40,322 nucleotides of DNA. Source: a candidate division WOR-3 bacterium (GTDB taxonomy: Bacteria > Hydrothermota > Tepidihabitantia > SM23-42 > JAOAFX01). Numbering within the stretch: position 1 is the stretch's first letter; each line of letters begins with the position of its first letter. This document shows positions 18,001-21,000 of the stretch, in pieces. The stretch spans positions 1 to 40,322 of the forward strand of contig JBDRWI010000015.1 of assembly GCA_039802265.1 (NCBI GenBank). The letters run 5' to 3'. The position numbers were made by a program.

Positions 18001-21000
18001 ATGTACTGAATTTAAGATATGCAAAGGTGCCTGTCCATTATTCTGGAAGGTATTCTCTCCGGGGCGAGGCAGGGAGATTGATTGAGATGGACTCTTATTC
18101 CATTCTTGGTAAAATCTCCCCAAAATTGAGAAATTTTGTTACTGTCATTTTATTTTTTACCGGTTTTGCCCTGCAATTGAGTTCAAGGAATATCCTCCCT
18201 GGATTACCCTTTATTGCTTCCTGTGTTTTACTGAACTGGATTAAAGGTTTTTCGATAAAACCAATCCGCCCCCAAAAATTGGAATGGACAGAAGTAACAC
18301 CGGAAAAGATTGCCATGGTTGGCAGGCATTGTGAGGGTTTAAAGAGAATCCCTAAAAATCTGGGATGTGCCGCATTTATAATCATCACTTTTTTCGTAAT
18401 ATTCGGCATAGGCTTTATTTGGGAGTTATTATCAAATCTAAGTAAATATCAATTTTCGGTCTTTGTCTTAATTATTGATTCTATAATTATCTTTTCCGGC
18501 GTAATGTTGAGTGGCGGCCGTGACATCTGGATTCCCAATAATCTGGATGTTAAAATTCCGATTATTGAAAGAATATTAAATCACCCTCTACTTAAAAAAG
18601 ACCCCAGTCTGCAGATAATACCTTACCTTGAAATCGGCAAGACAAAGGATGGCACATTTCCCAATGATACAAGGATACTGATTAAATTTAAGGATGCACC
18701 AGAGGATTTTATCGGTGTGCAATTTCAGATTTCAATAAATGATGTTCAGGGCAAAAAATATCCTTATTGCTACTGTGTTATCATTGCCCGGAAAACCTTC
18801 GGGTTATTTGCGAAATTTGTTCCTGTAGAATTAGAAAGAATAACCATTGAAACTGAAAGAAGCAGTGATACAGATGTGATTATAATTCGCCAGACCACAA
18901 CAAAAAATACTGGTTATTACACAGACACCCAGGTCCAAGATTATATCCTGAAAAACAGCATCAATATTACAAAAAGTATTCTTTCTAATCCAGCATAAAA
19001 TCATCTGTAATTATAGCAAATCTTGACTTTGTTCAATAAATCACTATAATTGAGATGGGGTTATTTGTTTTAAAACATAGCCGCAAGTATTAGTTTGCGG
19101 ATAAAAAGACTTATGGTAGCGCGAAAAAAGAAAAAATAATTTTAATGGGGTAAGGCTTAATAGCCTCTGATTAAATCAAGGGTATGCAGTTTGCACTACT
19201 TATGGTGCATAAAAAATGCTATGAAATTTAATAAGATTATCCCCTCCCTTGACGGGAGAGGATTAAGAGCCTGCCCTGAATCCTGACCCGTCTTCAGGAC
19301 AGGTTTATTTCAGGGTGAGGGTGATAAAATTGGTTACCCCTCACCTTTGCCCTCTCCCACAGAGGGGGAGAGGGATTTGATATATCTGAGGAGGTAACTT
19401 GAAGATTCATGAATATCAGGCAAAGGAATTTTTCAAAAAATACGGTATACCTGTGCCGAAAGAAAAGGTATGCCTCAGTCTTGATGAAGTGATCTCGGCA
19501 GCAAGGGAGATTGGATTGCCCTGTGTTATCAAGGCACAGGTGATGGTCGGCGGAAGGGGAAAGGCGGGTGGCATAAAAGTGGCAAAAACCGAAGATGAGG
19601 TCAAGACTTATGGTTCGCAGATACTCGGGATGGAGATAAAAGGACTAAAGGTGAAAAAGGTTCTGGTCTCTGCCGCGATTGAAATTGCATCCGAAGCCTA
19701 TTTGGGCATTATCATTGACCGTAACGAGAAAAAGACCGTATTAATGGCATGCAAAGAAGGAGGAGTAGAAATTGAGGAAGTAGCAAGACAGAAACCCGAG
19801 GCAATATATAAAGTTTATGCTGACCCCTTAATCGGATTACTTGAGCACCGGGCAAGAGAGATAGGACTATTTCTTTATGGCAGTTCTAAGAATGCATTTG
19901 AGTGTGCGTCAATCGCAGACAAACTTTATAGATTATTTGTTGAAAATGACGCCTCACTTGCCGAAATAAATCCTTTAGTTGTAGATAAATCGGGAAATCT
20001 TATCGCCCTTGACGCCAAGATAAACTTTGATGATAACGGACTTTACCGCCACCCCGAGATTGAAGCGTTGAGGGATAGAGAGAGTGAAGATGAAAATGAA
20101 TTGCTCGCTCGAGAAAGAGACCTTTCTTATGTAAAACTCAATGGTAATATTGGCTGTGTGGTAAACGGCGCCGGTCTTGCCATGGCAACGATGGACCTGG
20201 TAAAACATTTTGGCGGTGAACCCGCAAACTTTCTTGATATTGGTGGTTCCTCTTCGCCGGAAAAGGTGAAAAATGCTTTGGAAATTCTATTAAGAGATAA
20301 AAATGTAAAGGTGATATTCTTCAATATCTTTGGTGGTATAACCCGCTGTGATGATGTAGCGCTGGGGATACTTGAGGCGAAAAAGTCTTTAAATATTAAA
20401 CAGCCAATCGTAGCACGCCTTACCGGAACAAATGAAGACAAGGCAATGGAGATTCTTAAAGAGGCGGGGTTGATCTTTGCAAAGACAATGGATGAAGGCG
20501 CAAAAAAGGCAATTGAACTTTTAAAATAACAAGGAGCACCATAAAATGAGTATTTTGGTAAATAAGAATACAAGATTGGTTGTTCAGGGTATCACCGGGC
20601 GTGATGGCAGTTTCCATACCCGCCAGATGCTAAATTATGGAACAAATGTAGTAGCGGGCGTAACGCCTGGCAAGGGAGGAATAGAGGTAGAGGGTGTACC
20701 TGTCTTCAATTCAGTCGCGGAGGCAGTGAAGAAAACAAATGCCAATACCTCGGTGATTTTTGTCCCGGCAAAATTTGCTCCCGGCGCAATGTATGAAGCC
20801 ATTGATGCCGGTATTGAACTGATTGTCTGTATATCTGAGGGAATTCCCACGATTGAGATGGTAAGGATTGTCGCGTACTTAAAGGATAAAAAGTGCCGAC
20901 TCATCGGCCCCAATTCACCGGGACTCGTATCACCTGGCGAAGCAAAAGTAGGAATTCTGCCCGGACATATCTTTAAGAAGGGGAAAATCGGCGTGATCTC

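Follow-up and report, generated by a model that had tools for sequence, protein, structure and literature searches.

Directly in front of sucC, the gene for the beta subunit of succinyl-CoA ligase, lies a gene-less insertion with fixed ends that recurs in the genome of this hot-spring bacterium. The window, by which we mean the whole 40,322-nt stretch of DNA that was analysed, holds two copies of this element, one at sucC and a degenerate one on the opposite strand. A putative host promoter is found upstream of the sucC copy, which therefore sits in the 5' leader of the gene. The parts of the two copies and their host surroundings are listed below, where SD denotes the Shine-Dalgarno sequence and the core is the AG dinucleotide present at both junctions.

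19023..19050, plus strand: putative sigma-70-type host promoter of sucC, called by consensus match alone (11 of 12 positions)
19107..19108, plus strand: left AG copy of the core, identified from empty sites as closing the 5' half of the original SD
19109..19390, plus strand: sucC copy of the element, 282 nt core to core, in front of sucC
19109..19127, plus strand: conserved 5' end of the element, about 19 nt
19134..19164, plus strand: subfamily-specific segment (a1), present in 5 of the 24 mapped copies in the genome
19193..19208, plus strand: small hairpin (h1), in which 9 nt of the element's 5' end recur
19239..19263, plus strand: REP-like hairpin, of a kind that is also free-standing and flanks DUF559 relics
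19267..19313, plus strand: 47-nt nested insertion, a 24-nt palindrome (also found outside the element) that holds a 23-nt hairpin at 19281-19303; delimited by alignment with the copies on contigs C6 and C53
19338..19374, plus strand: repeat that we take to be boxC-like, with a terminal 9-bp hairpin at 19350-19374 and a weak U tail
19376..19388, plus strand: conserved 3' end of the element, 13 nt
19389..19390, plus strand: right AG copy of the core, which restores the SD together with the host bases after it
19391..19395, plus strand: host 3' half of the SD
19399..20529, plus strand: sucC, host gene, with a TTG start at 19399
2244..2357, minus strand: second copy of the element, degenerate, 114 nt, B subfamily, before a T9SS-type sorting-domain gene

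The gene after the second copy encodes a protein with a C-terminal T9SS-type sorting domain and starts with an ATG at 2233 (minus strand). Elsewhere in the window, a polysaccharide biosynthesis cluster contains an AbiEi/AbiEii-type toxin-antitoxin pair (35208-36692, minus strand) and a four-helix-bundle (23S rRNA IVP) gene (38327-38755, minus strand). A 665-aa protein encoded at 2498-4495 (plus strand) has an N-terminal homeodomain-like/transposase-type helix-turn-helix and a weak TPR match at its end, with no catalytic family matched. A free-standing 8-nt tandem array lies at 15104-15140 (minus strand); in relatives, arrays of this kind make up the interior in one subfamily of the element. 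Many contigs of hot-spring runs end at this array.

The genome, assembled to 2.30 Mb in 110 contigs and 89% complete, carries about 30 copies of the element, 21 of them with both ends intact. The exact 12-nt 3' end has 18 matches genome-wide and the exact 15-nt 5' end has 10, with none for the reversed and complemented controls of either, and an SD-like purine run follows all 18 exact 3'-end matches. A weight-matrix scan, trained on element copies, returned the 21 paired copies (106-305 nt) and 9 further copies in which one end is degenerate, truncated or off the contig; weaker single-end matches that overlapped the reversed-matrix control were left out of this count. An open reading frame of at least 60 aa starts within 2-8 nt after 23 of 25 element 3' ends, compared with 325 of 1193 other SD hexamers. 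Overall the element measures 60-320 nt, and the smallest complete copy is 61 nt long (locus L012). These results bear out the description in an earlier note of a real multi-copy element with fixed ends, and likewise its report that no Rfam family matches (best score 15 bits, against a cut-off of 37).

No open reading frame lies between the ends, and neither a DEDD recombinase gene nor a bridge RNA was found within them. Terminal inverted repeats are lacking (2-3 of 10 matches at offset 0), including the 4-30 bp repeats of MITEs derived from DDE transposons. The near-perfect 11-13 bp subterminal inverted repeats of the IS1111 group are also absent, the best mean being 5.3 of 10, with 8 of 10 counted by eye in one variant. 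Among offsets, a 7-nt left plus 3-nt right extension gave the best cell, a weak optimum given that another offset reaches 4.9 and that the 46 rows are related and include one mis-paired; such a 7-and-3 asymmetry would point, weakly, to the IS1111 group and to the opposite orientation. There is no dyad symmetry around the core.

Comparison with a same-genus genome, G001, located the insertion point. Where the two genomes align well, empty sites have a single AG within a full SD whereas filled sites have AG at both junctions, from which it follows that the element splits the SD and rebuilds it. Three of the empty sites in G001 are base-exact: leuC-leuD, where the two BLAST halves abut, HSP20, and a site on contig C8, where the halves overlap by two bases. 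The empty and filled alleles of one pair (L222) have in common an SD variant with four G, so the GAGG half is host target DNA, which settles the earlier concern that GGAGG might belong to the element. Over 21 sites the target is the full SD, about 9 nt long; an A precedes the core at 20 of them, GAGG follows it at 20, and orientation and register are the same throughout. Insertion is thus within the SD and not directly 5' of it, as had been proposed at first; the wider proposal of a mobile, gene-less, SD-targeted element that spares genes is upheld by the base-exact empty sites and by the variant shared at the empty/filled pair.

Empty sites were found in both directions. When 12 filled sites were compared with G001, 6 were empty (sucC, HSP20, rpmF, leuC-leuD, the C8 gene and the C61 gene, the last with a diverged upstream region), 1 was filled by another subfamily and 5 were not comparable because the gene was absent, not covered or not orthologous; 6 of the 7 comparable sites are therefore empty. 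Conversely, among the matches listed, this genome has empty sites, in the same register, where G001, G013, G030 and G032 are filled. The reported absence of the element from sucC in relatives held in all 12 of those read, with the upstream gene common to only one (G001), which makes this comparison weaker than had been stated.

Placement relative to genes is more varied than the sucC copy suggests. Ten of the 21 elements start less than 60 nt from a same-strand upstream stop codon, four of these within 6 nt, and many copies are accordingly intercistronic; the earlier formula of landing between promoter and start codon does not hold as a rule, since these 10 sites lie within operons. Recognition of the start codon by a guide was considered and set aside, the 4-nt spacing at 11 of 24 filled sites being close to background (100 of 263). 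A variant in G001 (L360, L362-L364, L449) carries an extended -10 box in its 5' end and sits in the purine-rich arms of a palindromic repeat, away from genes and not in SDs. That this variant also enters repeat palindromes off genes suggests that selection accounts for part of the preference for true start sites. At L219 (G011:C32), two 3' ends stand in tandem before a single gene.

Sequence similarity between copies at unrelated sites argues for recent movement. Such copies are up to 98.7% alike, against 79-87% for orthologous genes of G001, and one copy shares 92% identity with a copy that another genus, whose genes are about 67-79% alike, carries at a different site. With up to 2 mismatches allowed, 45 of the phylum's 271 genomes have the 3' end, which is concentrated in the element's own family (9 of 14 relatives) and in a sister family (9 of 31), in agreement with the earlier finding of the 3' end in relatives; a reversed control of the same scan gave 7 matches, and scattered single matches elsewhere in the phylum may be chance. 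Some sites are filled in two or more genomes by different subfamilies or interiors. A full copy in a spirochaete-labelled record (L045) possibly reflects either a mislabelled bin or transfer. Among the 15 joints listed from contigs of four hot-spring runs, none skipped the whole element, an observation that carries no weight since contigs drop rare variants. Taken together, the copies represent a real, recently mobile passenger that splits the SD.

At least three interior types are found between the constant ends of the element. The sucC copy equals the shorter copy on C53 with a 24-nt palindrome added, and this palindrome in turn contains a 23-nt hairpin. Inner hairpins of this sort are also free in the genome, flank DUF559 relics and nest into one another; 8 of the 19 strict matches to the terminal hairpin fall outside paired copies, 3 of these 8 being in unpaired copies. 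The subterminal hairpin varies between subfamilies while the ends stay constant, and one subfamily has 8-nt tandem repeats beside its 3' end. We conclude that the REP-like hairpins are passengers and do not serve as the signal for recognition. Routes to chimeras are, we infer, provided by deletions immediately interior to the 5' end and by the one tandem arrangement (L219).

Other repeats of the genome also lie close to start sites. Three near-identical DUF559 relics (C6:49989, C8:13717 and C31:27284; L454-L456) are part of a composite repeat that is bounded by inverted repeats and ends just before an SD, and the right flank of the IS110 element on C28 is the same composite repeat. A second repeat family by start sites is a REP-like hairpin pattern, 3 of whose 7 matches (on C27, C36 and C93) lead straight into an SD.

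Effects on translation of the downstream gene were assessed by predicted pairing of the SD. At 55 C, predicted unpairing was 0.454 with the element and 0.452 without it (21 sites; Wilcoxon p 0.95), and 0.443 at background sites (60 of 138). The terminal hairpin of the element has a weak U tail. Occlusion or opening of the SD by the element was rejected on the strength of the unchanged predicted accessibility, and the earlier suggestion that insertions rewire 5' leaders is unsupported. On these predictions, neutrality for the host is the default.

A driver for the gene-less element was looked for in the IS110 family. This genome contains one intact IS110 (gene at C28:128-1354, 408 aa; element L031, C28:128-1590) and one broken one. 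L031 and six relatives (L145, L153, L157, L181, L183 and L184), intact or broken, all sit in the SD of a gene facing away. The left non-coding end of L031 has a strong, bridge-RNA-like fold (z -6.3). In all 7, the predicted left guide opens with the start codon's complement, and it tracks the flank of its own IS110 (51 of 70 matches, reached by 0.5% of permutations); the predicted right guide ends in the SD in 6 of 7, and its flank test was not significant (36 of 45, reached by 10% of permutations). These predicted guides show RNA-guided SD targeting in the same genome. At L182 (G005:C23), an SD-guided IS110 lies directly behind a degenerate 3' end of the element, and both share one SD.

The resident IS110 is not the cognate driver, because it cuts three bases away, using the other CT of the anti-SD, and has different ends and a different predicted donor loop, which by eye agrees with the element junction at about 3 of 9 positions. 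The L031 clade has a consensus promoter across its predicted circle junction; judged by eye, a junction promoter is clear for the resident IS110 but weak in both orientations for the element. A second clade of SD-inserted IS110s (L186, L188, L373 and L372) occurs in distant families of the phylum. This clade has the same core register as the element, and its end beside the core agrees by eye, at 9 of 11 positions, with the 5' end of the G001 variant of the element. This is the closest end match seen, and a tentative lead. A search for IS110 domains did not find this clade in the two families that carry the element.

An autonomous element with the same ends was sought widely. None appeared in about 60 IS110 places examined, or with the IS110 domains of the family, order and phylum. 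In 90 loci the element showed no similarity to the non-coding ends of IS110s, but only to repeats next to those ends. The flanks of 3'-end matches (27 stretches of genome contigs and 60 of metagenome contigs) contained no IS110 by tblastn, and viral contigs had 0 matches. No autonomous partner emerged from searches with the 5' end in 131 and 48 genomes, or from 40 further 3'-end and 20 further 5'-end loci. Of 80 upstream open reading frames, 55 were compared with Pfam and yielded no recombinase, 25 shadow-frame-like frames having been left out. Plasmids gave the inner hairpin alone and one distant IS110, viral relatives of the resident IS110 were not found, and the genome of L045 has no IS110 domain. 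One 3'-end match behind an IS1111-like gene (L190) was rejected as a partner because the match lies beyond that element's own end. The collection scans were non-exhaustive, returning fewer relatives than the genome search, and the assembly is 89% complete. A group of IS1111-like elements found across the phylum (L375-L383, L387-L395) encodes transposases of about 400 aa with a conserved structured non-coding region downstream.

The element is probably a non-autonomous passenger moved in trans by a bridge-RNA-guided DEDD recombinase of the IS110 family. It has several traits of such a passenger: short ends without terminal inverted repeats, a two-sided target of about 9 nt, one orientation and an AG core at both junctions. 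In this model, a recombinase and bridge RNA encoded elsewhere would excise or copy the element as a circle; the donor loop would read its joined ends, and a target loop spelling the SD would direct insertion at SDs, with insertions at SD-like words inside genes lost by selection. If only the ends matter, REP-like hairpins could be added to the interior, parts of it could be lost and the interiors of different copies could recombine, giving rise to subfamilies. The cognate driver would be something other than the resident IS110, and may be lost, unassembled or in a neighbouring lineage. Against this reading, no autonomous element with these ends was found in the loci examined, the resident IS110 differs in cut position, ends and predicted donor loop, neither orientation of the predicted junction gives a clear promoter, and the right-guide test was not significant. 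The ends are conserved over 13-19 nt, beyond the window of about 14 nt that a donor loop reads, and some sites are filled in several genomes by different subfamilies, which gene conversion could also explain. The element works like a gene-less IS110 derivative, and its assignment to that family is provisional. A more speculative version, which we think unlikely, makes the element a parentless free-rider whose minimal ends would be captured either by SD-guided bridge recombinases from other lineages, with donor recognition that is relaxed or accepts half matches, or by an undescribed recombinase family, so that any hairpin cargo would be shuttled into host translation starts and between genera.

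Three other explanations bear on the same observations. That the element is REPIN- or PATE-like and moves as single-stranded DNA through an HUH (Y1) transposase would account for its REP-like interior; the A-A-G of the 5' flank would then belong to the element, and the SD half would be a target that is not duplicated. RAYT proteins cleave at CT. Three Y1 genes are present in the genome; however, all three are flanked by unrelated inverted repeats or by none, the subterminal hairpin differs among subfamilies while the ends are constant, a poor fit to hairpin-based recognition, and the empty sites hold a full SD with one AG, so we regard this origin as improbable. Just as doubtful is movement by a recombinase of the serine or tyrosine type whose crossover is 2 bp, or by one of unknown type that reads the SD by protein contact. 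IS607- and Tn4451-like recombinases have 2-bp crossovers, and the 2-nt core is compatible with serine recombinases; the conservation of the ends to a greater depth than a donor loop reads, and the 8-nt tandem repeats next to the 3' end in one subfamily, would fit as well. Yet resolvase domains turned up in 5 of the order's 48 genomes and in none of the 14 family relatives, of which 9 possess the element's 3' end, the flanks of the resolvase gene in this genome are unrelated to the element, and the core lacks dyad symmetry.

It is also conceivable that the copies are old insertions, kept as regulatory leaders or intercistronic RNA structures and homogenised by gene conversion instead of ongoing movement. 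The strong fold of the leader (z -4.9), the terminator-like hairpins in the element and the sites filled in at least two genomes with different interiors speak for retention of this kind. We give it little credence, given that 6 of 7 comparable sites are empty in G001, the downstream genes have no common function, predicted SD accessibility is equal with and without the element at the 21 sites, and copies also sit in repeat palindromes off genes.

The closest precedent for the target is IS900, an IS110-family element of Mycobacterium avium subsp. paratuberculosis. One report gives it a start-codon-plus-SD target, with 3 genes disrupted among 58 copies, and calls it 'stealthy' (PMC8141618); the title of Doran et al. 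1997 already speaks of IS900 targeting translation initiation signals. An SD safe-harbour strategy is therefore not new, as the earlier note had held it to be. Like IS900, the element targets translation initiation, has no terminal inverted repeats and rarely breaks genes. IS900, however, is autonomous (1.45 kb with a transposase), whereas the element is gene-less, measures 60-320 nt, splits the SD at its first AG and shows no preferred spacing to the start codon over that of the genome background.

For the passenger state, the precedent is MITEPpu9, the ssr9 module of ISPpu9, described as a gene-less, modular IS110 passenger with proposed movement in trans as a circle (PMC12288879). Both are gene-less and modular with short ends, but MITEPpu9 has a REP target, an sRNA gene and a cognate IS in the same genome, and our element has an SD target, a variable interior and no cognate found. 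Work on the IS621 bridge recombinase (PMC11208160) covers recombination at the core, and work on seekRNA elements of the IS1111 group (PMC11187229) covers subterminal inverted repeats, 7/3 extensions and cargo movement; both bodies of work describe short donors as mobile with bridge RNA supplied in trans (PMC11208160, PMC11187229), and half-match recombination appears in a further source (10.64898/2026.08.31.748434). The element resembles these systems in its 2-nt core (CT on one strand, AG on the other) and short two-sided target, and differs in having no bridge RNA or recombinase within it and no near-perfect 11-13 bp subterminal repeat. Classical MITEs and REP or TIR repeats (PMC10969869, PMC3733652) are similar in size, non-coding nature, intergenic position, strong stem-loops and, for REP repeats, the inner modules. 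The suspicion that the element belongs to such a class was justified for those modules; the asymmetric ends, the lack of terminal inverted repeats, the sequence-specific SD target and the absence of a flanked RAYT or TIRYT gene set the whole apart.

In the literature searched, with most subscription papers and ISFinder outside its scope, we found no report of an SD-targeted family of non-autonomous elements. The novelty lies in the combination of traits: an SD passenger with several subfamilies and nested modules that ranges over two families of a single order, its driver not found. SD targeting is thereby widened from autonomous IS900-like elements to a gene-less passenger in an uncultured lineage, where, with about 30 copies compared with 98 free full-length SD sites before open reading frames, it holds about a quarter of the best SD sites in the genome. 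Its copies amount to a natural set of donor ends, 61-323 nt long and with several end variants, on which the tolerance of bridge recombinases for donor mismatch could be tested, and the SD-guided IS110s beside it are candidates for insertion upstream of genes.
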